Both the position numbers and the translations under genes were made by a program. A DNA stretch of 32,000 nucleotides from an uncultured Clostridia bacterium (lineage in GTDB: Bacteria; Bacillota; Clostridia; Oscillospirales; Ruminococcaceae), in the NCBI GenBank assembly GCA_947627905.1, contig CANQXX010000008.1, forward strand, positions 10,818 through 42,817. The letters are read 5' to 3'. Below the pieces are notes generated by a model that was given only the letters and a program-made list of their open reading frames with translations, had not been told where the DNA came from and did no database searches. Below, piece after piece: positions 2,171 to 21,092 of the stretch (the stretch's first letter is position 1; the number at the start of each line of letters is the position of its first letter).

Positions 2171-3460
2171 TTATAAAATATAACAAATATTTATCTGCGG
2201 AGCATTTTCTTCAATATCATTTATCTGCTCCTCGGAAATTATCGGTTCTTCATATCCGACGCATATATACCGCAAGTTTTCAAGTTCATATAACGGTCTG
2301 AAATGATCCGCCGACATATCTTCTTCCCTCATATAATGCGGAATAAACGCCGTAAGGCTGTCTGCATTTTCAAGTAAAGCAATATCATCGCCAATATAAT
2401 AATCGGCTGAAAATACCGTCAGGTTTTTCAGTCCGGATATTTTTGAAAGGTTTTCTGCCTTGTCAGGCGTGGATATTTCAAGCGAACGCAGTCCTGTAAG
2501 TTTTTCAATGCCGCTTATATCAATGACATCATCAGAAACTATCATAAGTTCCGCAAGATCGGAAAGTTCCGAAAGTTTTTCAAAGGTTTCTTCCGTTATA
2601 GATCCGGCATCGTAATTATTTATGCAAACGGACGCCGCGTCAATGGGAATTTCCAATTCCCCGATCGTAATAAATTCTTTTTCATTTTTTGTTGGAGAAT
2701 TTGCATATTCCGAACTTGTTGGCTGATCGGCAAATTCGTCTATAAAAATATCTCCGCCGCCGTTTTCGGAAATTATTTTATCGCAGTCAATAGTTTTTAT
2801 GATTTCGTATTCCGACAATGCTTTATCAAGAATGTTTTCATATCCGTTTTCGGAATTTTCCGTATAGAATTTACCGTCCACTATGCCATAATAAAAGAAA
2901 GTATCAAAATTAAAAACGCCGCTTTCAGGGAGAGTTTCTCCGCTTGCAATACACTTGACATTACCGAAATTATCCGTCTGTTCAAAGCCGTATTCGGTAA
3001 AATTATATTTGTAATACGAGGTATTCCCGATATCTTTCCAATGCGCAGCAAAGAAATATTCGTTATTTTCTTTGTCATAGCAAATTTTCAGAACGGAATA
3101 AATATAACAGTCATTTAACGGCGTCCATGTTTCATTATCGGGATCAAAATAATATAAAATAATATTTCTGCCGTATGACGCGTTCCGGACATCTATCCTT
3201 TCGGGGAAATCATCACCGTTTATATCAATAAAAATACGCCCATCAAGTTCATCATAAATTTCTCCTGCCGTTTCAATTGCCGTTTCAAGAACGGTTTTAT
3301 TTTCCGAAAGGCTGTCAATTATTTCGGGAGAAACTTCGGGGTCAATTGTCTGTTCCTTATTAATTTTTTCCGGAAAAAGACCGTCATAATTATTTTTCTG
3401 ACAAGCCGAAAAAATAATTGCCGCAAATAAAACAGCAAAAATTATTTTTATTGCTTTCAT
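2171..3460 (-). CDS. Lipoprotein with a C-terminal leucine-rich-repeat domain
   Basis: I take the internal ATG at 3460 (MKAIKIIFAVLFAAIIFSAC) as the start. It is preceded by GGAGGG, and it gives a lipobox (FSAC). The C-terminal third carries LRR-like repeats (LSDLAELMIVSD.., LTGLRSLEIS.., ISGLKNLTVFS..). Confidence 0.8.
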   Translation of the reverse strand: MKAIKIIFAVLFAAIIFSACQKNNYDGLFPEKINKEQTIDPEVSPEIIDSLSENKTVLETAIETAGEIYDELDGRIFIDINGDDFPERIDVRNASYGRNIILYYFDPDNETWTPLNDCYIYSVLKICYDKENNEYFFAAHWKDIGNTSYYKYNFTEYGFEQTDNFGNVKCIASGETLPESGVFNFDTFFYYGIVDGKFYTENSENGYENILDKALSEYEIIKTIDCDKIISENGGGDIFIDEFADQPTSSEYANSPTKNEKEFITIGELEIPIDAASVCINNYDAGSITEETFEKLSELSDLAELMIVSDDVIDISGIEKLTGLRSLEISTPDKAENLSKISGLKNLTVFSADYYIGDDIALLENADSLTAFIPHYMREEDMSADHFRPLYELENLRYICVGYEEPIISEEQINDIEENAPQINICYIL

Positions 3461-3497
3461 TAATATCCCTCCGAATAAAAAAATTCCCTTTAATAAA

Positions 3498-3526
3498 ATA
3501 ATAACATACCCCGGGAATATTTTCAA
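3498..3526 (-). promoter_or_regulatory. Sigma-A-type promoter for the LRR lipoprotein gene
   Basis: Minus strand reads TTGAAA (3526-3521), a 17-nt spacer, then TATTAT (3503-3498), with TG one nt upstream of the -10 (extended -10). Confidence 0.5.
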
Positions 3527-6812: not shown

Positions 6813-9800
6813 ATGCCTTTGATCATATTTGCTATTATATGGCTGATATCGCCTATCGTGCTGCTGATACTCTATTTAGTACAGTTAAGCAGCAATTCCG
6901 ATCTGAAAAAGCAAAATAAAGCGCTGCTTGAAGAAATAAAAAAACTGACGGACTTACATACCGAAAAACCGGCGGACAACATTCAGACTGTCCATGCTGA
7001 AGCCGCTGAAAAACCGGCAGCTTCATATGATACAAATTATGATATGTCCTATGCCATTCCAAAAAATATTCCGGCAGCGGCTCTTTCGGAAACATCAGAA
7101 ACTGCGATTTCTACAGAGGTAAATGCGAAAAACGGCTGCTATCCAGAAGAAACAGCGAGCCGTGTTATTCCCGATATAACGGCAGCAGAAACCGCCGTAC
7201 CTGAAAAAACGGAGAATATTCCGCAAAATTTATATGTACCGGAAAAGAAGAGCATCAGCACTATAAATATAATACTTATACTCGGAGCGCTGCTGCTTTC
7301 TCTTGCAGGATTTATTTTTGCTGCCGCAGCATGGGAAATAATGAACACACTGTTCCGCTCGGTACTGCTGCTGTCCTTTTCGGCGCTGTTCTTCGGGATA
7401 CATTCCGTTGCGGAAAGAAAACTCGGTCTTGTCCAGACAGGACGGATATTCTACATACTTGGAAGTATTTTTCTTCCGGCGGCAGTTGCCGCCGCAGGCG
7501 TTCTTAAAATTTTCGGGGAATATTTTTCCTTTTACGGAGACGGGAAAGCGGCTGTCTTTGCGTTAATGTTCATTACGGTATGCATACCGTTTTTCAAAGG
7601 CGCACACGATTATAAATTCAGAAGTTTTGCCGCGGTGTCCTTTGCAAGCTTTTCGGCTGCGATAGTTTCGCTGATATGGCAGTTTACAAAAGGCGGAGAT
7701 ATTGCCTCTCTGGGAATGTCGGTATTCTCGCTGCTTATAATTCTCACAGAACCGCTTGTAAGCAGGATATTTACTAACATTTTCGGTGAGGAAACTATAT
7801 TTGCCGCCGAATGGAAACGTTTTTCCACGCTGAATGTGTGGGTTTTAAGCGTAATATCGCTTTTTGCAGCGGAGGACGGATATATTTCCCTTGCAGCGTT
7901 CCTGATATTCTCCGTATGTTTCCTGAAAAAATCCGTTTCGGACAAAAACGGCGCGGGCGGGACTATAGCCTTTGCTTTCTTTATGACTGCTGCGCTGTTC
8001 GTGGGATTTGACCCTGACGGAATGTCGGGATTTATGGCAATAATTGCCGCAACGGCGCTTATTTATACCGTTCTGTCGGCAATGGGGATCTTTCCCGAAC
8101 CTATCAGAAAAATAATGAAAGTTCTGGGTATCATTGCCGCAGGAGCAGTCGCGTTCCTTGGCGTTATCGAGAATATTTCCCTTATTGCCGACAATGAACT
8201 GCCGTCACTTACGCTTATCGGTGCGGCTGCGGCAATTTTTGCGCAGCTCCTTATTCTTGCACTCCGCAGCAAAACGAGCGGATACAAAGCAGCGTCATTC
8301 GGAGCGGTGCTGTGGCTTTCGGCGGAAATTTCCCTGTATGTTTTCGGAAAGCTTGAGTTAAGCGGATATGCCTTTTCGGCTGCGGCGGCATATCTTTTCA
8401 TGGCTTTATACTTTGCGGCAGCAAGGTTCACGCCGCTCAAAAAACATCTTTATTCACCGATAAACGATATTATTATCGCAGCGTATGCGTTTATCTGTTC
8501 GTTGATTTCTATAAACGCAGACCTTGGGACATATATGACCGACGGAATTATCGGGCTCGGCATACTTGCTGTCGGAACGCTGCTTGCGGTATTTTCAAAG
8601 CAGGAAAAATTCTCTCGCATAATAACCGTTTCACTTACCGCGCTGACATTTTTCCCGTTCATAGTATTATTTACAGAAACGGAAAAATATCCCGGGATCG
8701 TATGCGCGGCAGCGGTAACGCTTATGCTGATGTGCATTATCGCGGCGGTGACGATGTTCATTCCCAAAGCGGAAAAATACGCAAAAGCATACGGGATCGG
8801 AGTAATTGCCGCAGCTTTGGTATACTGTATTATAATTCTAATTGCGGAAACATACTTATTCGTGCCGCTTATTTTAGTAACGGGCGTTTCGCTTATTTAC
8901 CTTGTGAAAAAGGCGTTTCCGCAGGGAAAATACTCGCGGATATGGCTTTTCTACACATCACTTCTGCTGACTGCACTGTTCATGGGCATACAGTTCACCG
9001 ACGGAATTTACTTTATTTGCTTCCCTGCGGCGCTGCTGCTTCTTATATTTGCGGTGCAGACTATATTTGCCGATGTGGGTGATTTTGAAAAAATTGAACT
9101 GCCATCGGAAATTTTTCTTTGGAACGTTATGCCGGTATTTTCGGGAATAATGCTTTTTATGGCAGAAAGAAATAACAGCGTTATAATGTACATTTTCGCA
9201 GCGATCCTTGGGGTATGCTCGGTGCTGTTAAGCATTTTCCGGAAAAATACGCTTGATCTGATCTTCCCCATATTTGCTCTTGACGTTGTGCTGATGAAAA
9301 GCATTTACAGCGTTCCTGCGGCAGTTTGTACGGTGGTATTTGCAATTTTCGGACGGCTGATGTTCCGCAAAAAGATATTTGAAGAAAAATACTGGATAGA
9401 CGTTTTCTCAATTGGTTCGATATTTACTGCGGCGGTGTTCCTGCTTGGATTTGACGGGAAAGTACAAACATGGATAGGCTGTATTCTTGCTTCAATAGCG
9501 GTGCTGAATTTCGTCCGCCGCGAACAGACGCACTCTGCAAAGAAACTTATAATGACAGTTTCCGCATTGGGGATATTCACCATATGGTGGACGATACCGT
9601 TCTTTGATATACCGGATATTATCGGGCTTGAATTTAACCTTTTCCCTGTGGTGATATTCTGCATACTTCTCAGGATCATACATAAAGACGTGCCGGAAAA
9701 GGTATACAATTTCTCTTTCGGAGCGGCAATAGCTTGCATAGTGATACTGTTCATAGGCGCGCTTGTTTCGGGTGAAAGTTTTGACGCGGTATTTATCGGC

Positions 9801-10058
9801 ATAGTTCTGCTGATAATGCTTGCGGTATCGTTTATAATAAAACGCAAGCGCTGGTTCGTGCTTGCAGTGGCGTCAATGGTGATCTCAGCGGCGCTTCTCA
9901 GTCTGAGGCAGCTTGACAGCATTGCATGGCTCATATATCTTGCTCTTACGGGAGCGGCGCTCATTGCGCTTGGAGTTGTAAACGAAATAAAGAAGCAGCA
10001 GAAGCGCAGCGGCGAGGAAACAAAGCTGACACGGTTCATGTCCGACTGGACTTGGTAA
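6813..10058 (+). CDS. Very large polytopic membrane protein of unknown function (1081 aa), possibly DUF2339/SCO7613-C-terminal-like
   Basis: N-terminal TM helix, then a coiled-coil-like stretch (DLKKQNKALLEEIKKLTDLH), an approximately 100-aa low-complexity linker, and then an almost uninterrupted series of helix-length hydrophobic segments (by eye roughly 25-30). It has its own promoter and terminator. Every antisense or alternate-frame ORF inside it looks spurious. Confidence 0.85.
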   Translation: MPLIIFAIIWLISPIVLLILYLVQLSSNSDLKKQNKALLEEIKKLTDLHTEKPADNIQTVHAEAAEKPAASYDTNYDMSYAIPKNIPAAALSETSETAISTEVNAKNGCYPEETASRVIPDITAAETAVPEKTENIPQNLYVPEKKSISTINIILILGALLLSLAGFIFAAAAWEIMNTLFRSVLLLSFSALFFGIHSVAERKLGLVQTGRIFYILGSIFLPAAVAAAGVLKIFGEYFSFYGDGKAAVFALMFITVCIPFFKGAHDYKFRSFAAVSFASFSAAIVSLIWQFTKGGDIASLGMSVFSLLIILTEPLVSRIFTNIFGEETIFAAEWKRFSTLNVWVLSVISLFAAEDGYISLAAFLIFSVCFLKKSVSDKNGAGGTIAFAFFMTAALFVGFDPDGMSGFMAIIAATALIYTVLSAMGIFPEPIRKIMKVLGIIAAGAVAFLGVIENISLIADNELPSLTLIGAAAAIFAQLLILALRSKTSGYKAASFGAVLWLSAEISLYVFGKLELSGYAFSAAAAYLFMALYFAAARFTPLKKHLYSPINDIIIAAYAFICSLISINADLGTYMTDGIIGLGILAVGTLLAVFSKQEKFSRIITVSLTALTFFPFIVLFTETEKYPGIVCAAAVTLMLMCIIAAVTMFIPKAEKYAKAYGIGVIAAALVYCIIILIAETYLFVPLILVTGVSLIYLVKKAFPQGKYSRIWLFYTSLLLTALFMGIQFTDGIYFICFPAALLLLIFAVQTIFADVGDFEKIELPSEIFLWNVMPVFSGIMLFMAERNNSVIMYIFAAILGVCSVLLSIFRKNTLDLIFPIFALDVVLMKSIYSVPAAVCTVVFAIFGRLMFRKKIFEEKYWIDVFSIGSIFTAAVFLLGFDGKVQTWIGCILASIAVLNFVRREQTHSAKKLIMTVSALGIFTIWWTIPFFDIPDIIGLEFNLFPVVIFCILLRIIHKDVPEKVYNFSFGAAIACIVILFIGALVSGESFDAVFIGIVLLIMLAVSFIIKRKRWFVLAVASMVISAALLSLRQLDSIAWLIYLALTGAALIALGVVNEIKKQQKRSGEETKLTRFMSDWTW

Positions 10059-11704: not shown

Positions 11705-11713
11705 ATATCTGTG

Positions 11714-11810
11714 CTATACAGGGGAGCTGCTGATTGCGGCTGAGAGGGAACAAAAACAGTTCCGACCCTTTGACCTGATACGGATAATGCCGGCGTAGGG
11801 AATTGTTCTG
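11714..11810 (+). promoter_or_regulatory. TPP (THI-box) riboswitch aptamer, canonical
   Basis: Contains GGGGAGC, a P3 hairpin (agctgc-tgatt-gcggct), CUGAGA (11740-11745), a P3a hairpin (ggaac..gttcc), GACCC, and ACCTGATACGGATAATGCCGGCGTAGGGAA. This matches the conserved core of Rfam RF00059. Confidence 0.9.
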
Positions 11811-11833
11811 ATCTTTATGTGGAATAAACGATC

Positions 11834-11882: not shown

Positions 11883-12455
11883 ATGAAATTTAAAACCCGT
11901 GAGCTTGTTGAAGGTGCAGTAATGGTCGCTCTTGCGTCTGCATTAAGTCTTGTTAAGATAATTGAAATGCCTTGGGGCGGCTCGGTAACGCTGCTTTCAA
12001 TGCTTCCTATCGTTGTTTACAGCATAAGATACGGAATTAAAAAAGGTCTTTTCGCTTCATTCGTTTACTCACTTTTTCAGCTTGCAACGTCGGGAGTTTT
12101 CGGCTGGGGACTGACGCCTCTCATGCTCATAGGAAGCATACTGCTCGATTATGTTCTTGCATTTACGGTCGTAGGTCTTGCGGGAATATTCCGTAACAAG
12201 GGACTTCCCGGTTACATAGGCGGAACGGTATTTGCAGGCGTATTAAGATTTATCAGTCATTTTCTCAGCGGAGTAGTTATCTGGCATTCATTCGGTGAAC
12301 TCTGGAGCGGATTTGTTACAGACAATGAATGGCTTTACAGCCTCGTTTACAATGGAGTTTATATGCTCCCGGAGATAATATTTACGGTAATAGGCGCGGT
12401 GATACTTTTCTCCGTTCCGCAGCTCAGAAAGCTTTTTGCACCGCAGGGAAATTAA
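11883..12455 (+). CDS. thiT: Thiamine transporter ThiT (ECF transporter S component)
   Basis: 190-aa multi-TM protein whose N-terminus ([31 protein letters not shown]) is typical of the ThiT family. It is the first gene after the TPP riboswitch. Confidence 0.85.
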
Positions 12456-12475
12456 AGAATTATCGGAGGGGTTTT

Positions 12476-13789
12476 ATGAAAAATTACAGCACTCAGATGG
12501 AAGCCGCTAAAAAAGGCATAATCACACCCGAAATGCAGACCGTCTCGGAAAAGGAATACGTTCCCGCAGAAAAAATACGGGAACTGGCCGCACTTGGACA
12601 GATAGCTATTCCTGCAAACGTTAATCACAAGTCGCTTTCCGCAGAGGGAATAGGCAAAGGACTTAAAACAAAGATAAACGTCAATCTCGGTATCTCCGGC
12701 GACTGCAAAAATTACGACGTCGAAATGGAAAAGGTAAAACTTTCACTTAAATTCGGCGCGGAAGCTATAATGGATCTGTCAAATTACGGTAAAACAAATA
12801 CTTTCCGCAGGAAGCTGATAGAAATGTCTCCTGCAATGATAGGGACCGTTCCCATGTACGACGCTATAGGCTACCTTGAAAAAGATCTGCTTGAAATCAC
12901 CGCGGAGGATTTCCTGAAAGTTGTCCGCGCTCATGCGGAAGAAGGCGTGGATTTCATGACTATCCATGCGGGGATAAACCGCCGTGCAGTCGAAGCGTTC
13001 AAGCGTGACAAACGGAAAATGAACATCGTTTCAAGAGGCGGCTCGCTGCTGTTCGCATGGATGGAAATGACCGGCAATGAAAACCCGTTCTATGAACATT
13101 ATGATGAAGTCCTTGACATTCTCCGCGAATATGACGTTACCATAAGTCTCGGCGACGCGCTCCGTCCCGGCTGTATCGACGACAGTTCCGACGGCGGACA
13201 GATAGCCGAACTTATCGAGCTTGGCGCGCTTACCGAACGCGCTTGGGCAAAGGACGTACAGGTCATGGTGGAAGGTCCGGGACACATGGCTATGAACGAA
13301 ATAGAGGCAAATATGAAATTGCAGAAACGTATCTGTCATGAAGCGCCGTTTTACGTTCTCGGACCTCTGGTAACTGATATTTTCCCCGGATACGATCACA
13401 TAACTTCCGCGATAGGAGGAGCGATCGCGGCAGCAAGCGGAGCGGATTTCCTGTGCTATGTCACACCTGCGGAGCATCTCCGTCTGCCTGATATAGACGA
13501 TGTAAGGGAAGGCATAATCGCTTCAAAAATAGCCGCCCACGCTGCCGACATTGCAAAGGGCGTTCCTCATGCAAGAGACCGTGATAATGAAATGGCTGAA
13601 GCGCGCCACAAGGTAGACTGGGACGAAATGTTCAGAATAGCCGTAGATCCGGACAAAGCAAAGGCTTATTTTGAAAGCACTCCCCCGTCCGACAGGCATA
13701 CCTGTTCGATGTGCGGAAAAATGTGTGCGGTCCGGACCACAAACATGATACTTGAAGGCAAAAAGGTAGAATTTTGCACGGAAAAATGA
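12476..13789 (+). CDS. thiC: Phosphomethylpyrimidine synthase ThiC (radical SAM)
   Basis: ATG at 12476 follows GGAGGG. It starts [20 protein letters not shown], contains VMVEGPGH and the C-terminal CSMCGKMCA cluster motif. The upstream 49 codons of the supplied ORF overlap thiT and are rejected. Confidence 0.95.
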
Positions 13790-13852
13790 TATTTCAGCAT
13801 TGCTGCTTTGAAATATACGCCGGCGGAGGAGCGTCCGAGGGCGTAATAAATT

Positions 13853-13964
13853 CTGCGAGGGAACCCGTGTTTCGGGGTGAGAGGAGACTTTCAAGTCTCG
13901 ACCGATCTGTCCCAATGGACGGAGTCTGCCCCGCAGTACTCTCCTTTCGGGACAGGAAGGAGGA
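13853..13964 (+). promoter_or_regulatory. Atypical TPP-riboswitch-like leader RNA with an SD-sequestering expression platform, upstream of thiW
   Basis: P1 CUGCG (13853-57) / CGCAG (13932-36). P3 CCCG-UGUUU-CGGG. GUGAGA (13877-82). P3a GAGAC-UUUCAA-GUCUC. GACC. A GAUC-CUGUCC-CAAU-GGACGG arm. Anti-SD CUCCUUUC (13941-48) pairs with SD GGAAGGAG (13955-62). GAGAGGAGA (13879-87) is complementary to UCUCCUUUC (13940-48). The canonical ACCUGAUCUGGAUAAUGCCAGCGUAGGGA block is absent. Confidence 0.5.
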
Positions 13965-13971
13965 TATTACA

Positions 13972-14520
13972 ATGAACAAAAACAGCAAAACAAACATCAG
14001 AAAACTTGCAGCAGCTGCACTTCTAACCGCAGTTGCCGTTGTGGGATCGCTTTTTTCGTTCCCGTTCCTTGGCGCGAAATGCAGTCCGGTACAGCATCTG
14101 GTGAACATAATCGGAGGCGTTTACTTAGGACCGTGGTACGCTATGGGTTCAGCATTCTGTGCAAGTCTTATACGTCTGCTGCTTGGGCTCGGTTCGCCGC
14201 TTGCTTTCCCCGGCTCAATGGTGGGAGCGCTTCTTTCCGGAGCAATGTATCACATGATCCTCAAGCACAAAGGACAATGGATACGCCTTATCGGAGCTTA
14301 TATCGGAGAGCTTTTCGGAACATCGGTGATAGGCGGTATGCTTTCATTCCCTATTGCATATTTTGTTATGGAAAATACTGCCGCAACACTTTTCGGCTTT
14401 GTATTCCCGTTCTTTGTTTCCAGTGTTGTAGGAACGGTGGCGGCGTCTATAATAGTTTCTTCAATGAAAAAAGCAAGACTGCTCGAGATCTTTGACGACG
14501 AAGAAAAAGCAAAAAACTGA
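13972..14520 (+). CDS. thiW: ThiW, ECF-type S component for the thiazole precursor (hydroxyethylthiazole)
   Basis: ATG at 13972 lies 8 nt after GGAAGGAGG. The 182-aa multi-TM protein (..FPFLGAKCSPVQHLVNIIGGVYLGPWYA..GSPLAFPGSMVGALLSG..) sits immediately upstream of thiM, which is the usual ThiW context. Confidence 0.8.
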   Translation: MNKNSKTNIRKLAAAALLTAVAVVGSLFSFPFLGAKCSPVQHLVNIIGGVYLGPWYAMGSAFCASLIRLLLGLGSPLAFPGSMVGALLSGAMYHMILKHKGQWIRLIGAYIGELFGTSVIGGMLSFPIAYFVMENTAATLFGFVFPFFVSSVVGTVAASIIVSSMKKARLLEIFDDEEKAKN

Positions 14521-14542
14521 CAAACAAAATGGAGAAATTTTT

Positions 14543-15364
14543 ATGATAACTCCCGAAAAAATATATTCACTCAGACAGGAAATCGCATTGCGCCGTCCGC
14601 TGGTAAACTGCATTGCAAATCACGTTACAGCCGGATACTGCGCAAATGCCGTTCTTGCTGTCGGGGCAAGACCTATAATGGCTGAATTTGAAAAAGAATC
14701 CGTCGGGATAGTATCCGCCGCAAAGGCTCTCTCGGTCAATCTCGGAGGCATAAACGACAGCAAAGCCGCTGCAATATCCGTTTCGGCAAAAACTGCTCAT
14801 GATCTCTCCGTTCCGTGGATAATCGACCTTGTCGGGATCGGGTGCAGCAGCTTCAGACTGGAGCTTGCAAATGAACTGATACAAAAATATTCTCCCGATG
14901 TCATCAAAGGTAACCGGTCGGAAATATTTGCTCTCTGCGGGATCGCGTCTCATGCTGAAGGAGTTGATTCCTCCGACGGCACGGATATTTCCGTTTGCAC
15001 AAAAATGGCTGAAAAAGCTGCTTCGGCATATTCGGCAGTCGTAATGATGACAGGCGAAACGGATATTATAACGGACGGGAACAAAACGGTTTATGTAAAA
15101 AACGGTGATTCGCTCATGACATATGTTACCGGAACGGGCTGCGTTCTCGGAGCGCTGACCGGGTGCTTCCTTACTGCCGCAAATGCTTTTGACAGCGCAG
15201 TATCTGCGACGGTCACTATGGGGATTGCCGGAGAACAGGCAGCTGAGATATTCAGGAAAGACAAAAGCATAAGCCGGTTTGCAGGTTCGATAATAGACGG
15301 ATTATTTTCCGCAGATATAGATATTTACATCAATAAGGCGAGGTATTATGAAAATGAAGCCTGA
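14543..15364 (+). CDS. thiM: Hydroxyethylthiazole kinase ThiM
   Basis: ATG at 14543 follows GGAG. N-terminus ..LRRPLVNCIANHVTAGYCANAVLAVGARPIMA and VTGTGCVLGALTG are typical of ThiM. Confidence 0.9.
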   Translation: MITPEKIYSLRQEIALRRPLVNCIANHVTAGYCANAVLAVGARPIMAEFEKESVGIVSAAKALSVNLGGINDSKAAAISVSAKTAHDLSVPWIIDLVGIGCSSFRLELANELIQKYSPDVIKGNRSEIFALCGIASHAEGVDSSDGTDISVCTKMAEKAASAYSAVVMMTGETDIITDGNKTVYVKNGDSLMTYVTGTGCVLGALTGCFLTAANAFDSAVSATVTMGIAGEQAAEIFRKDKSISRFAGSIIDGLFSADIDIYINKARYYENEA

Positions 15365-15980
15365 CGTTACCCTTTATCTTGTGACCGACAGCCGCGGGAT
15401 CGACTGCACTGAATTTCTGAAAAGGATCGAAGCCGCCTGCCGCGGCGGCGCTGCTCTTGTACAGCTTCGGGAAAAAAACCGCTGTTCGCGCGATCTTCTT
15501 GCGCTTGCAAAGCAGGTCAAGCTGGTCACTGACAAATTCCATGTTCCGCTTATAATAAATGACCGAGCGGATATCGCGCTTGCCTGCGGAGCAGCAGGAG
15601 TACACGGCGGAAGCGAAGATATCCCTATCGCCGATCTGCGCCGTATCATGGGAGAAAATAGCATTATCGGAGCTACCGCGAAAAGTCTGCCGCAGGCATT
15701 GCAGGCTCAGGCTGACGGCGCGGACTATCTCGGAGTAGGAGCGATATTCCCTACCGCAACAAAGGACGCCGTTCTTACGGATATAGATATGCTAAGAAAT
15801 ATCTGTGCAAAAGTATCTGTTCCGGTATGCGCAATAGGCGGCATAACGGCTGAAAACTGCGGCGTGCTTTCCGGAAGCGGCATATCGGGTCTTGCTGTAG
15901 TTTCCGCAATAATGTCAGCAGACGACAGCGAAGCGGCAGCTTCGGAACTGCTCCGAAAAGCACGGGAGATAATATCATGA
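15348..15980 (+). CDS. thiE: Thiamine-phosphate synthase ThiE
   Basis: LYLVTD..., ALVQLREKN, PLIINDRADIALACGAAGVH and YLGVGAIFPT motifs. It overlaps the thiM end by 17 nt. The start could instead be the ATG at 15354. Confidence 0.9.
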   Translation: MKMKPDVTLYLVTDSRGIDCTEFLKRIEAACRGGAALVQLREKNRCSRDLLALAKQVKLVTDKFHVPLIINDRADIALACGAAGVHGGSEDIPIADLRRIMGENSIIGATAKSLPQALQAQADGADYLGVGAIFPTATKDAVLTDIDMLRNICAKVSVPVCAIGGITAENCGVLSGSGISGLAVVSAIMSADDSEAAASELLRKAREIIS

Positions 15981-16762
15981 AGATAAAAACAGTACTTTCA
16001 ATAGCAGGTTCCGATCCCAGCGGCGGTGCAGGCATACAGGCAGATCTTAAAACAATTGAAGCTCATGGACTTTACGGAATGAGCGTTATCACCGCTCTTA
16101 CAGCGCAAAATACCATGGGCGTCAAGGACGTTTTTACAGTGCCTGCCGATTTTTATTCCGTTCAGCTTGAAGAAGTCCTTTCGGACATCTTCCCCGATGC
16201 GGTCAAAATTGGTATGATCCCCGACGAAAATATCATGTACAGTACATATGAGCTTCTGAAAAAATATCATGTAAAAAATATTGTTATCGACACCGTAATG
16301 GTTTCCACAAGCGGGAAAAGACTTATGGAAGAAAATGCCGTTAAATTTTATTCGGACAGATTTTTATCCATAGCGGACATTATCACTCCCAATATTCCGG
16401 AAGCGCAGCTGCTCTGGGGCAAGGAAATTTTCTGCGAAAGCGATATGGAAGCTGCCGCGGCATACATTTCCCATAAGATCGGCGTTTCCGTGCTTGTAAA
16501 GGGAGGTCACCTTACAGGTGAAGCAGCCGATATCCTGTTCCATAAAGGAGAAATATCCCGCTATGCTTCGGAGCGCATAGAAAACCCTAACACTCACGGA
16601 ACAGGCTGCACCCTTTCATCTGCAATAGCCTGCGGTCTTGCGGAAGGGATGACAATTCCCGAAAGCGTTGAGCAAGCAAAAAAATATATTTCCGGAGCAA
16701 TATCCGCAGGTCTTGATATCGGGCACGGGAACGGTCCGCTTCTTCATAATTTCAAAAAATGA
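15977..16762 (+). CDS. thiD: Hydroxymethylpyrimidine / phosphomethylpyrimidine kinase ThiD
   Basis: VLSIAGSDPSGGAGIQADLKT and NTHGTGCTLSSAIA motifs. ATGA start/stop overlap with thiE. Confidence 0.9.
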   Translation: MKIKTVLSIAGSDPSGGAGIQADLKTIEAHGLYGMSVITALTAQNTMGVKDVFTVPADFYSVQLEEVLSDIFPDAVKIGMIPDENIMYSTYELLKKYHVKNIVIDTVMVSTSGKRLMEENAVKFYSDRFLSIADIITPNIPEAQLLWGKEIFCESDMEAAAAYISHKIGVSVLVKGGHLTGEAADILFHKGEISRYASERIENPNTHGTGCTLSSAIACGLAEGMTIPESVEQAKKYISGAISAGLDIGHGNGPLLHNFKK

Positions 16763-17453: not shown

Positions 17454-17468
17454 TATTATTCAGTAAAA

Positions 17469-17500
17469 ACGGGACTGTTCCGCTGTGGAACAGTCCCGTT
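17469..17500. terminator. Hairpin terminator between convergent genes; the U-run is best on the minus strand
   Basis: Perfect 11-bp stem gggactgttcc / ggaacagtccc with loop gctgt. The minus-strand reading is followed by GTTTTT. Confidence 0.8.
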
Positions 17501-17507
17501 AAATATT

Positions 17508-18386
17508 TTACATTGCAATAACAAAATTAATAACTCCGAACGGATAATTTACCGGAACTACACACGCTTTTGAAAGTCCCTTTATATCCATTTCATCGTA
17601 ATAACACTGAGGTTCAAGCTGAAGCTCCTTGCCTGTGTCGTTTGAAACATTTACGGCAAAAAGTCCGTTGTGCAGGTTTATGAACTCGCTTACGCAAGCC
17701 TGTGTGTATTCATCGTCGCCGCTCATTTCCTCTTTGGCAAACCTTGAAGCAAATGCTATGAGCGCAGGCTTCTCGGCATAGATCAGCGTTGTCATATTCG
17801 TACTGCCGCTTATGTTCTGGAGCACAACATTCTTTATAGGTTCCTTGAGTGCAAACGGTTCCATTGGTGTGAAATCATCGCCTATAAAACGTATGAGATT
17901 TTTGAATATCAGTGAAACATAATTTACTGCGTGATCCGAATCTCCGCCGGAAGATATATTGTAAAATCCTGCAACCAGCTTTTTAGCAGCATTTTCATCT
18001 GTATTGTTCATGTCCGAATCGGAAAGACTGTTTTCCTCTTTGTAAGACTTCAATGCGCTCTCAAACTGAGCATTGCTCATATATCCCTTATCAACAAGGG
18101 TCTGTCCGAGAAGAAGATGTCCGGTAGGCTGAGTTCTGAGAAGCTCTTCTACCTGATCCTTTGTAAGAAATCCCATTTCTACCATAACATCGCCAATGCG
18201 CTTATCGGCACGCTGCTGACGGTCATGAGCCTTTTCTACCTGATCTGCTGTCATAAGACCTGCATTTATTGCCAGAACACCCAGTTTAAGACGGGTATTC
18301 TTCTGGATCTGAAGCGCTTCGGAAAGCTGTTCCGAAGATACGAGCTGCCGGCGGAGAAGATAATTGCCGAAAAATTGTGTAAACAT
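17508..18386 (-). CDS. Two-domain protein: N-terminal tandem MshEN/T2SSE_N-like (putative c-di-GMP-binding) motifs and a C-terminal CheX-like domain
   Basis: GGGAGG lies 10 nt upstream of the ATG, 21 nt after the cheY stop. Residues 34-57 (KLGVLAINAGLMTADQVEKAHDRQ) and 63-86 (RIGDVMVEMGFLTKDQVEELLRTQ) fit RLGxxLLxxGLLxxxxLxxxLxxQ, with a 5-residue spacer (QRADK). Residues from about 150 to 292 resemble CheX, with conserved E234-x2-N237 (SEFINLHNG) and a C-terminal VVPVNYPFGVINFVI strand pair. Confidence 0.6.
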   Translation of the reverse strand: MFTQFFGNYLLRRQLVSSEQLSEALQIQKNTRLKLGVLAINAGLMTADQVEKAHDRQQRADKRIGDVMVEMGFLTKDQVEELLRTQPTGHLLLGQTLVDKGYMSNAQFESALKSYKEENSLSDSDMNNTDENAAKKLVAGFYNISSGGDSDHAVNYVSLIFKNLIRFIGDDFTPMEPFALKEPIKNVVLQNISGSTNMTTLIYAEKPALIAFASRFAKEEMSGDDEYTQACVSEFINLHNGLFAVNVSNDTGKELQLEPQCYYDEMDIKGLSKACVVPVNYPFGVINFVIAM

Positions 18387-18834: not shown

Positions 18835-18863
18835 ATTATAACACATGGAAAACAATTTTTCAA
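18835..18863 (-). promoter_or_regulatory. Sigma-A promoter with extended -10 for the cheY / cheX-like operon
   Basis: Minus strand reads TTGAAA (18863-58), 17 nt, TATAAT (18840-35), preceded by TGt. Confidence 0.6.
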
Positions 18864-19088: not shown

Positions 19089-19114
19089 AAAAAAGCGGAC
19101 GGCTTTCCGTCCGC
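19089..19114 (-). terminator. Intrinsic terminator of the MCP gene
   Basis: Stem gcggacgg / ccgtccgc with loop cttt. The minus-strand reading is followed by TTTTTT. It begins 6 nt after the MCP stop. Confidence 0.8.
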
Positions 19115-19119
19115 TTTGT

Positions 19120-21054
19120 TTATGTATGGAATATTGCTATCTTATCACGGAGCGTAAGAGCCTGAGCATTGAGCTGCTCGCAGCTTGCTGCGCTTTCCTC
19201 GGCTGTGGCGCTGTTCTGCTGGATAACGTCGGATATCTGATCTATGCCTATCTTTACCTGACGGACGGACTCCTCCTGCTTTACAGTCTGCTGTGCAATG
19301 CCTTCAATAAGTTCATTTGTCTCATTTGTTATGGCAATTACACGCTTCATTGCTTCGGCAGTTTTATGCGCAATTGCAGAGCCGTGATTTACCGCGTCGA
19401 TACAGCTTCCGATAAGAATGGAAGTATTATTTGCGGCTTCCGCAGATTTATTTGCCAGATTTCTTACTTCATCGGCAACCACCGCAAAGCCCTTTCCTGC
19501 CGCACCTGCTCTGGCTGCTTCAACGGCGGCGTTAAGAGCAAGTATATTCGTCTGGAATGCGATATCCTCAATGGCTTTTATTATCTTGCTGATCTCGCCG
19601 GCGCTGTTTTCGATGTTATCCATGGCTTCAAGCATATTTCCGATCTCTTCGTTCTGCTTGTTTACCATTTTTATGGAACTGTTTGAAAGCTCCTGAGCCT
19701 TTTCCGCGTTGCCGGCATTAAAGCTGATGTTTCTGGAAATATCGTCCAATGAAGCGGAAAGTTCCTGAGAAGCTGCTGCCTGCTTTGTTGTACCGTCCGC
19801 AAGCACGGACGCTCCGTTAGATATCTGTTCCGAGCCGCTGTATACTTCATCTGCGGAAACATTTATGCTTTCTATCACGTCTTTCATTCTTTTACGGAGA
19901 GTTTCAGCAGATTCGCCTATACTTACAAAATCTCCGCTGTATGTAACTTCCGATTCATATCCGAAATTGCCTTCCGACATTTCATGCATCATATTGGAAA
20001 CGTCGCCTACATATCTGTCCAGTATCATAATAGCCGTTGAGATAGATTCCGCAAGCTCGCCTATTTCATTTTTTCCTATTTCATCGGCAGAAATAATATT
20101 TCCGTGAAGATTTCCGTGTTCCATTTCGGAAGCCATTTTCTTTACAGAGGTTATCGGCTCAGAAATGCTCTTTGATATGAAAATTATCAGCATGAAACCC
20201 GATATGACGATCATCAGTATGCCTATTGAAGCGCCTATAAACACAGCCATATTCCGGTTTTTTATCATTGTTTCCATAGGAGAGCCTGTAAAGAATGCTC
20301 CCTTTACCATGCCGTTTGCATCTATTATCGGGAAATATGCCGCCATATATTCGGTCCCGAACAATTCTGCCTCGTCAACATACTGCTCGCCGTTAGTTAT
20401 TACCGTTTCATAGATATCAGAAAGCATTATCGTTCCCACAGCACGTTCTCCGTCAGCGCCCGGAATGGTAGTAGATATCCTGCTGTCGTCACAATAGATC
20501 GTAGCGTGCGAGCCTGTCTGGGCATATACCTCGTCTACTATTGCGTTATCGCTGTAGGAATATCCTACGGTTATCATTCCCTTGTCTGACTTTACGGAGC
20601 TGCGGTAAAACAGGGACGCTTCCGAATCGGTAAACATTCCTGTTTTTTCGGAACTTACCACATCAAACATTCCCTCAGCGGAAATAGCGCAGTTATCCGT
20701 TTTATATCTGATTATGCCGTCGTTATCGGCAAAAACACCGAAAATGCCGTTTGACTTGCTTATTCCGTCCCATATTTCCGCCAGCTTTACGGCGTCTTTA
20801 TTTTCGATTGCATCGGTAAATTCAGTATTGCCTGCAAGAAGATATGCCAGCACCTGCGTTTCATCAGCCTTTGACATTATAGCTTCCTGAAGAACGTTTG
20901 AAGCCACAAGAGTTTCATTCCTGAGATTTTTAGTCTCGGCGTTAGTAAACAGTGCAACAAATCCCACAGTTATAGCAGCTGCAACTACTATAAGCAGCGC
21001 GCTTACCGTAACTGTAAGTTTTACTCCTATTTTTGATACTGACTTTCCGGACAT
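19120..21054 (-). CDS. Methyl-accepting chemotaxis protein with an extracellular Cache-like sensor, HAMP and MA signalling domains
   Basis: Two TM segments flank an approximately 250-aa ectodomain. The highly conserved hairpin tip is present ([40 protein letters not shown]). I prefer the ATG at 21054 (MSGKS..), 6 nt after GGGGTG, because the upstream GTG at 21063 lies within the SD. Confidence 0.9.
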
Positions 21055-21092
21055 ACGATACACCCCGACAAATATTATTATTATCTATACTT

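Follow-up and report, generated by a model that had tools for sequence, protein, structure and literature searches.

We analysed a 32,000-nt stretch of contig CANQXX010000008.1 (assembly GCA_947627905.1), hereafter the window, from an uncultured Clostridia bacterium of the Ruminococcaceae, and our analysis centred on a gene for a 292-aa protein lying directly after a gene for a CheY-like receiver. In this protein, an N-terminal array of MshEN-type repeats is fused to a C-terminal domain of the CheX phosphatase type. Sequence comparison and predicted structures together led us to favour, with slightly better than even confidence, the view that the fusion is a cyclic diguanylate (c-di-GMP)-responsive phosphatase for its co-transcribed CheY-like partner. 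An initial annotation, made from the letters alone, had described such a protein after cheY; the open reading frame (ORF) exists at 17508-18386 with the translation that was quoted, and it lies on the minus strand, none having been given earlier. The domains, the motifs, the alignment of the active site and the linkage of the genes are direct observations.

In the proposed mechanism, the sensor (residues 1-118) would be an all-helical array of four repeats, whose central pair (34-57 and 63-86) would form a four-helix bundle like the MshEN_N of MshE and PilF and bind a single molecule of c-di-GMP. Backbone amides, those of G36/V37 and G65/D66, are predicted to hold the guanine edges, K34 and R63 to stack on the bases, and Q57 and Q86 to hold the ribose-phosphate, while the degenerate outer repeats probably only buttress the bundle. 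In the enzyme (residues ~150-292), E234 and N237 would enter the active site of the phosphorylated receiver and hydrolyse the aspartyl phosphate. Occupancy by c-di-GMP would then change phosphatase activity, dimerisation or location, and the level of the second messenger would thereby set the lifetime of the phosphorylated receiver. Ligand binding by the central pair and dephosphorylation of the receiver form the best-supported reading, resting on homology, conservation and linkage. The control of phosphatase activity by ligand occupancy is something we infer from the fusion itself; the direction of such coupling and a flagellar output would be conjectural likewise.

The N-terminal repeat array

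The N-terminus of the fusion protein consists of four 24-aa repeats (a to d, Table 1), in register and separated by 5-aa spacers, which gives a strict 29-residue period. Two of them, K34-Q57 and R63-Q86, with QRADK in between, had been recognised in the initial annotation, and the sequence is as claimed. The weaker helices that had been placed on either side, at residues 7-28 and 91-114, are indeed repeats, but their true limits are 5-28 and 92-115, and all four repeats are in register. Profile comparison gave in-register log-odds of +6 to +37 for all repeat pairs versus -34 ± 10 for shifted controls, and the highest similarity of all motif pairs was that of b and c (36.6; a-c 20.0, b-d 8.9).

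The NCBIfam model NF053729 ('c-di-GMP_motif, MshE-related', 53 positions) matched the fusion protein far beyond chance (90.5 bits, cutoff 38, E=4e-26). It parsed two stretches, the best of which covered residues 6-57 over the whole 53-position model. A phmmer search against PDB sequences returned PilF (1e-12) and MshE (8e-5, residues 32-84 aligned to MshE 7-59), and the MshE match improved to 6e-7 when the family profile was used. The models of NfrB and EpsG cross-matched residues 56-146. FumaraseC_C (PF10415) and DUF4388/PatA_N were found on residues 14-86, below their cutoffs and over the helical repeats only, and were rejected as cross-matches that imply no membership. The sub-threshold FumaraseC_C match on repeat c (18129-18200) is also present as precomputed annotation in many homologues; it looks spurious and could mislead automated annotation.

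Conservation was counted in 133 family representatives with 26-52% identity to the query. The 5-residue spacers are essentially invariant, and the b-c spacer has 5 aa in 133/133. In repeat b, position 1 is K or R in 123 representatives, G36 is kept in 128 and Q57 in 127; in repeat c, R or K occupies position 1 in 107, with G65 in 124 and Q86 in 126. Repeat a has F, Y or L at position 1 and never R or K, Gly at position 3 in 118 of the 133 and Gln at position 24 in 40. Repeat d has L, V or S at position 1, G94 in only 59, and always Y or F at position 24. Judged from these alignments, only the central repeats b and c keep the residues that contact c-di-GMP in MshE.

The predicted c-di-GMP site

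AlphaFold predicted the full-length protein with a mean predicted local distance difference test (pLDDT) score of 86.8 and the N-domain alone (AlphaFold2, AF2) with 89.5, and the N-domain has eight helices in both models. The structure comparison that had been proposed initially bore out both halves: the C-terminal half has the CheX fold (see below), and in Foldseek the best PDB match of the predicted N-domain was c-di-GMP-bound MshE (5htl_B; 52 columns, root-mean-square deviation 0.8 Å), followed by bound PilF GSPII-B at 1.1-1.3 Å. The register of this superposition was inferred from the identities that Foldseek reported, 33% for MshE and 27/25/27% for PilF wild type/K167R/Q218E, the aligned residues themselves being absent from its output. 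These values were reproduced exactly only by b+c; the other registers predicted 33/33/33/31 (a+b) and 37/33/35/33 (c+d) for MshE and the PilF triple. Identity to MshE alone was uninformative as a register test (32/32/36% for the three registers), and it was the PilF triple that resolved the register. Foldseek thus picked b+c despite the higher PilF identity of a+b and c+d, suggesting that b+c forms the MshEN-type bundle. In the AF2 model, the first helix starts 3 residues early in repeat a and 4 early in repeat d and is short in b and c. The early start was considered as proof that a and d cannot bind, but this argument was weakened, since the helix of apo PilF GSPII-B is likewise elongated and unwinds upon binding (PMC11731258, PMC12002112).

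Both central motifs have Gly at position 3 (G36, G65), Gln at position 24 (Q57, Q86) and R/K/L at position 1 (K34, R63). The fit to the strict MshEN consensus claimed in the initial annotation is close for the second copy, motif c, whose sole deviation is at position 6 (M), and looser for the first, motif b, where K at position 1, A at position 6 and H54 at position 21 depart from it. K34 is likely harmless, because PilF with K or L at motif position 1 binds c-di-GMP with nM affinity (PMC11731258). Of the two triangular Leu/Ile/Val clusters (positions 2, 17 and 21) that stack on the guanines in MshEN_N, L35/V79/L83 fits and I64/V50/H54 carries a non-canonical His. Family conservation, the structural register and the mutual similarity of b and c make the central pair the best candidate for the c-di-GMP site, which agrees with the earlier prediction that K34-Q57 and R63-Q86 act as the functional pair.

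The CheX-type domain

With the full-length model, the top 13 PDB matches in Foldseek were all CheX (E 8e-8 to 1e-5; target-normalised TM-score 0.66-0.77), from D. desulfuricans, V. vulnificus, B. burgdorferi, Shewanella and T. maritima, and CheC, FliY and FliM ranked lower. A C-terminal family profile matched the CheX of T. maritima (1squ/1xko, E=1.3e-5) and of B. burgdorferi (3hzh_B, 7e-5). A whole-protein profile had recovered no CheX from the PDB sequences, whereas the C-terminal-only profile built from more divergent members did. The CheX-like character of this half had been noted initially, and these matches agree with it.

The profile alignment places E234-x2-N237 on 'GELGN' of T. maritima and 'TEVGN' of B. 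burgdorferi, and P259 on 'ITPP'. The spacing E234-x2-N237-x21-P259 equals that of the published CheC/CheX/FliY consensus, D/S-x3-E-x2-N-x21-P (PMC12887009). The Glu, Asn and Pro of the catalytic pattern had thus been found correctly, but its spacing had been given as x22 instead of x21; similarly, the C-terminal hairpin reads V-P-x5-G-x-I-x-F and not, as first described, V-P-x4-G-x-I-x-F. Of the 133 representatives, 128 have an acidic residue at position 234, 127 have N237 and 104 have P259. Direct reading of the sequence finds a single ExxN in residues 150-292, as in CheX rather than CheC. In the CheX-CheY3 complex of B. burgdorferi, both catalytic residues reach into the active site of CheY, where they orient the attacking water (PMC12887009). 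Judged by alignment and predicted fold, the C-terminal domain is a true homologue of CheX, and its active site is intact.

Family distribution and gene neighbourhood

At 50% identity, the family comprises at least 292 clusters (E<=1e-30), almost all of 290-300 aa, and there are >1000 word-indexed matches. The family was found in 241 species-level genomes, mostly of Oscillospiraceae, Ruminococcus, Lachnospiraceae and Huintestinicola, and also in Butyrivibrio and Cellulosilyticaceae. A Clostridia metagenome-assembled genome from rabbit gut (locus L005) matches the window at 99% identity. All gene-context evidence on the carriers comes from the flanks of the module.

A survey of the fusion and its cheY linkage had been suggested in the initial annotation, and the linkage proved to be widespread: a CheY-like receiver adjoins the fusion gene in 71 of 77 informative loci, immediately preceding it on the same strand in 70 and following it in one. 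The latter (L090:10001-11260, Butyrivibrio sp., 28% identity) has the inverted order, with the fusion gene first and the receiver gene directly downstream. That the linkage survives a swap of gene order at 28% identity argues for a functional pair. The best PDB matches of the receiver in the window were all genuine CheY proteins (T. maritima CheY, 5e-24), and Spo0F (2e-11) lay about 40 bits lower.

When the ORFs flanking 82 loci were clustered all against all, the only conserved neighbours were the receiver and a stand-alone Hpt gene (~120 aa). The Hpt gene is transcribed divergently from the receiver/fusion pair; it lies on the opposite strand, some 400-700 bp ahead of the receiver or fusion gene, and occurs in 30/77 loci (L010-L017, L019-L021, L026, L028, L029, L032-L035, L042-L049 and others); it is absent from the window. 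Its product is most like the Hpt domains of phosphorelays (RcsD/YojN, 2e-4), with no match to CheA at E<=0.01. A receiver-less subclade (L028, L032-L035 and L086) has kept the Hpt neighbour. In the five tabulated loci of this subclade (L028, L032-L035), Hpt was kept in 5/5, K34 was changed to Q in 5/5, E234 to N in 4/5, and P259 was lost (Ser) in 3/5, with the other MshEN contact residues intact. The loss of E234 and P259 alongside that of the receiver ties the catalytic residues to the partner, and the CheX domain of this subclade may be non-catalytic.

In one locus with 70% identity (L009:361-6876, +), the genes for a hybrid histidine kinase (HisKA-HATPase-REC-REC), Hpt, a pair of REC-HD-GYP proteins, the receiver and MshEN-CheX form a single cluster and all point the same way. 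This cluster physically links the module to c-di-GMP phosphodiesterases and a phosphorelay, which is suggestive, for one locus only. Genes for GGDEF-EAL or REC-HD-GYP proteins lie <=6 kb from the module in 7 of about 77 loci, including L009; examples of GGDEF-EAL are L011:5653-8250 (+), starting about 340 bp downstream of the fusion gene, L014, and L078:1601-3268 (-). This frequency is not clearly above the chance level expected for Clostridia, and enrichment was therefore rejected; the presence of such genes shows only that the carrier organisms have c-di-GMP signalling. A further candidate link, a histidine kinase with GGDEF-EAL near Lachnospiraceae loci, was discarded as an ordinary OmpR-type two-component system beside polyphosphate genes.

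Gene layout and other features of the window

The receiver and fusion genes are separated by 21 nt, with a GGGAGG ribosome-binding site ahead of the fusion ATG (Table 1). Upstream lies a gene for a chemoreceptor of the methyl-accepting chemotaxis protein (MCP) type, which has its own hairpin and T-run terminator (19092-19117). The promoter-like site, together with the terminators after the MCP and fusion genes, agrees at the level of consensus matches with a bicistronic cheY-cheX operon behind its own promoter and a monocistronic MCP gene, as had been proposed. No CheA, CheW, GGDEF or EAL domain was found in the large ORFs of the window that were scanned, in line with the earlier statement that cheA and cheW are missing there.

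Table 1. Coordinates of the fusion gene, its parts and its neighbours (positions within the window; residues refer to the fusion protein).
Feature	Position	Strand	Basis or remark
MshEN_N-repeat/CheX fusion gene, 292 aa	17508..18386 (including stop codon)	minus	ORF and translation
Repeat a, residues 5-28	18303..18374	minus	Degenerate MshEN-like helix-turn-helix; in register with the other repeats
Repeat b, residues 34-57	18216..18287	minus	MshEN motif I of the predicted c-di-GMP site: K34, G36, G43, H54, Q57
Repeat c, residues 63-86	18129..18200	minus	MshEN motif II of the predicted c-di-GMP site: R63, G65, G72, L83, Q86
Repeat d, residues 92-115	18042..18113	minus	Degenerate MshEN-like helix-turn-helix
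Acidic linker with one short helix, residues 119-149	17940..18032	minus	Lowest pLDDT blocks (63-71); length variable across the family
CheX-type phosphatase domain, residues ~150-292	17511..17939	minus	Foldseek, C-terminal profile, Pfam CheX in relatives
Predicted catalytic E234-F-I-N237	17676..17687	minus	Aligned to the CheX catalytic motif
P259, conserved Pro of E-x2-N-x21-P	17610..17612	minus	Aligned to 'ITPP' of solved CheX proteins
CheY-like single-domain receiver gene, 119 aa	18408..18767	minus	Pfam Response_reg, E=6e-22; predicted substrate
Promoter-like site of the cheY-cheX operon	18835..18863	minus	TTGAAA-17-TATAAT with upstream TG, 11/12 matches; consensus match only
Hairpin terminator 3' of the fusion gene, common to the convergent flavin mononucleotide (FMN)-reductase gene	17468..17500		15-bp stem; TTTTT next on the minus strand
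Cache-HAMP-MCP chemoreceptor gene	19120..21063	minus	Pfam sCache_3_3, HAMP, MCPsignal; a neighbour, no conserved part of the module

Elsewhere in the window, the sole match of an Rfam scan was a thiamine pyrophosphate (TPP) riboswitch (RF00059, 68 bits) at 11710-11819 (+), ahead of a thiamine cluster at 11883-16762 that encodes a ThiT-like transporter, ThiC, ThiW, hydroxyethylthiazole kinase, thiamine monophosphate synthase and ThiD. The segment 26633-30236 (-) contains a gene for a cyclic-di-AMP receptor (DarA/PstA-type, PF06153; 28486-28836) with genes for DNA polymerase III delta', a PSP1-domain protein and a member of the Orn/Lys/Arg decarboxylase family, an arrangement like the conserved Firmicute darA-holB-yaaT neighbourhood. 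A 1081-aa ORF (6813-10058, +) gave only a weak match to the DUF2157 membrane domain, and a 451-aa ORF (2171-3526, -) had no Pfam match.

Alternative interpretations

Several results weigh against a c-di-GMP-responsive phosphatase. Full-text literature searches found no binding or activity data on an MshEN-CheX fusion, and scans of the large ORFs and Rfam found no c-di-GMP turnover gene (GGDEF/EAL) or GEMM riboswitch in the window. Pfam, to which the initial annotation had pointed for both halves, recognised neither: T2SSE_N (PF05157) gave no match to the fusion protein at E<=1, and CheX (PF13690) scored 19.1 bits for the fusion protein itself, below the cutoff of 27. The latter score can be put down to divergence, as fold, profile and active-site evidence agree with CheX, and 17 of 31 relatives do match Pfam CheX at E<=0.01 (best 1e-6). 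At the D/S position of the consensus (E-4), the fusion protein has Ala, and D occurs in 55/133 representatives. The protein lacks the MshEN_C subdomain, residues 1-118 being all helical in both AlphaFold models; because only the helical MshEN_N is present and the alpha/beta MshEN_C is lacking, T2SSE_N finds no match, and the protein stands outside the full GSPII (T2SSE_N) domain family with the N subdomain only, for which the NCBIfam motif model is the appropriate test. The register argument relies on predicted structures and assumes that Foldseek would have preferred another register had it been equally good. Furthermore, H54 (18225-18227, motif position 21) occupies a Leu-cluster position; it is invariant in the close relatives examined and is His in 83/133. 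The substitutions to which Wang et al. link the loss of binding by XpsE include some at cluster positions, L29R at motif position 21 and L54H at another position among them (PMC5013675), and for this reason H54 counts against binding. The same position carries H or N in 101/133, and the partner position (2 of repeat c) is occupied by Phe in 116/133; this may be a version of the binding pocket peculiar to the family. As to the pathway, no che or fla genes were found within 10 kb of the module in six surveyed contexts, and the frequent Hpt neighbour suggests a phosphorelay whose output may not reach the flagellar motor.

These results bear differently on three other explanations. The N-terminal repeats could be a degenerate MshEN-like scaffold that does not bind c-di-GMP and serves dimerisation, partner binding or localisation, with the CheX domain constitutive or regulated by a protein. 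H54 would fit such a scaffold, as would the clear degeneration of repeats a and d and the lack of both the MshEN_C subdomain and a T2SSE_N match; moreover, the GSPII-A of PilF looks MshEN-like, yet small deviations and helix capping abolish its binding (PMC12002112). Nevertheless, we consider a mere scaffold unlikely. In repeats b and c, 107-128 of the 133 representatives retain the contact Gly, Gln and R/K down to 26% identity, and the corresponding positions have drifted in a and d, which points to selection on a ligand site and not merely on the fold; the model superposes at 0.8 Å on the ligand-bound bundle of MshE, and its first helices are short in b and c. MshEN_C is also dispensable for binding, since the isolated MshEN_N (1-62) binds c-di-GMP with a dissociation constant of 0.35 μM (Wang et al., 2016; PMC5013675), and its absence is therefore not disqualifying for a sensor. 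A different partition of the array, into two separate MshEN_N domains (a+b and c+d) that bind two c-di-GMP per chain, seems to us decidedly improbable. It would account for the two stretches reported by NF053729, the best of which joins a and b, and for the annotation of the architecture as (MshEN_N)2 by Wang et al. (PMC5013675). By sequence, PilF GSPII-B aligns to c+d, a+b and c+d exceed b+c in identity to PilF, and motif II of GSPII-B likewise starts with Leu, a position-1 residue of high affinity (PMC11731258). However, repeat d has Y or F at position 24 in every representative and repeat a has Gln there in only 40/133, while a double Q-to-E change abolishes binding by PilF (PMC11731258). 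G94 is kept in fewer than half (59/133), Foldseek chose b+c in spite of its lower sequence identity, and the profile similarities of the repeats (b-c far above a-c and b-d) do not fit a tandem duplication. The '(MshEN_N)2' parse is probably a by-product of the periodic repeats.

The remaining alternative concerns the pathway, not the biochemistry, and is compatible with a c-di-GMP-responsive phosphatase: the receiver and CheX may work in an Hpt phosphorelay that has no role in flagellar switching and instead serves type IV pili, c-di-GMP turnover or development, in which case 'chemotaxis' would be a misnomer. We regard this as a serious possibility, though one we would sooner bet against. The divergent, RcsD/YojN-like single-domain Hpt, the co-directional kinase, Hpt and REC-HD-GYP genes of L009, the status of receiver and Hpt as sole conserved neighbours and the lack of nearby che/fla genes all speak for it, and MCP adjacency is confined to relatives at >=89% identity. 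On the other side, the best solved relatives of the receiver are all true CheY, the Cache-MCP gene adjoins the operon in the window, and the family is present in groups including Butyrivibrio and Lachnospira. Both are flagellated genera. The chemotaxis framing of the initial annotation is weaker than it was made out to be: MCP adjacency stops at close relatives, no che/fla genes were linked in the six contexts surveyed, and the recurrent third gene is a phosphorelay-like Hpt. Combining the two lines, the c-di-GMP-gated phosphatase could belong to a CheA-independent circuit, in which the hybrid kinase and the stand-alone Hpt phosphorylate the receiver, in some genomes also REC-HD-GYP proteins, and c-di-GMP sets the lifetime of receiver phosphorylation. 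We put this circuit forward as tentative and, as a whole, rather unlikely; if true, it would join the phosphorelay and the turnover of the second messenger in a closed feedback loop.

Comparison with known systems

The domain fusion is less novel than was first supposed. Wang et al. (2016; Nat Commun 7:12481, PMC5013675) named CheX among the MshEN fusion partners in their main text, and their Supplementary Table 4 lists '(MshEN_N)2 - CheX', exemplified by Geobacter lovleyi Glov_2742 and said to range over Deltaproteobacteria and Firmicutes, an entry that carries neither reference nor experiment. NCBI names relatives of our protein 'chemotaxis protein CheX'. The architecture, catalogued already in 2016, is thus not new. 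Our family shares with that entry the N-terminal MshEN_N-type motifs, the C-terminal CheX and an occurrence in Firmicutes, but it appears to differ in having one competent central pair and two degenerate flanks, Glov_2742 being compared by its table entry only. What appears to go beyond the catalogue is the pair-plus-flanks anatomy, the conserved receiver and Hpt module, and the receiver-less E234N subclade.

Stand-alone CheX proteins (B. burgdorferi 3HZH, T. maritima 1XKO/1SQU, V. vulnificus 6VPW) have the same fold (target-normalised TM-score 0.72-0.77), the E-x2-N-x21-P pattern, a Gly after the Asn and a genetic association with CheY. They are single domains of about 150 aa with no ligand-sensing module, whereas the fusion adds a 150-aa N-terminal extension, has Ala at the D/S (E-4) position and shares only 13-20% sequence identity with them. 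The putative sensor, in turn, has in common with the MshEN of MshE, PilB and PilF GSPII-B the 24+5+24-residue motif pair, a predicted bundle that superposes at 0.8-1.3 Å and the position-1 K found in high-affinity binders. Unlike these proteins, the fusion has a phosphatase and not an ATPase as its output, lacks MshEN_C, carries two extra degenerate repeats and has His for Leu at position 21.

The PilZ proteins PlzC of V. cholerae and PlzD of V. vulnificus act genetically through CheX (PMC12799141, PMC12887009; both 2026), and these papers make the c-di-GMP/CheX theme topical. As is proposed for our fusion, a c-di-GMP effector is tied there to a CheX-type phosphatase of phosphorylated CheY, and also to swimming behaviour, but the receptor is a separate PilZ protein, whereas the MshEN-type sensor of the fusion is joined to the enzyme. 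In V. cholerae, the CheX-dependent role in motility is separable from c-di-GMP binding.

If our interpretation is true, a c-di-GMP sensor built into the phosphatase would be a more direct route, with no adaptor, by which the messenger sets the lifetime of a phosphorylated regulator. Known routes from c-di-GMP to motility, such as YcgR-type brakes, MapZ acting on CheR1 and the CheY-like Cle proteins, work at the motor, on receptor methylation or through separate adaptors. The family is large and found mostly in gut and rumen Clostridia, and a small, soluble-looking protein beside its likely substrate makes a cheap in vitro target; since the architecture had been predicted a decade earlier, success would bear out an expectation, not upset one. 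Other MshEN_N fusions (the NfrB glycosyltransferase, the REC-MshEN_N protein Bd2402 and EpsG-type kinases) likewise use MshEN_N as a portable c-di-GMP input module, but they have other output domains, none of which acts on a response regulator, and the protein described here would, if our interpretation is right, be the first enzyme with direct c-di-GMP control of response-regulator dephosphorylation.

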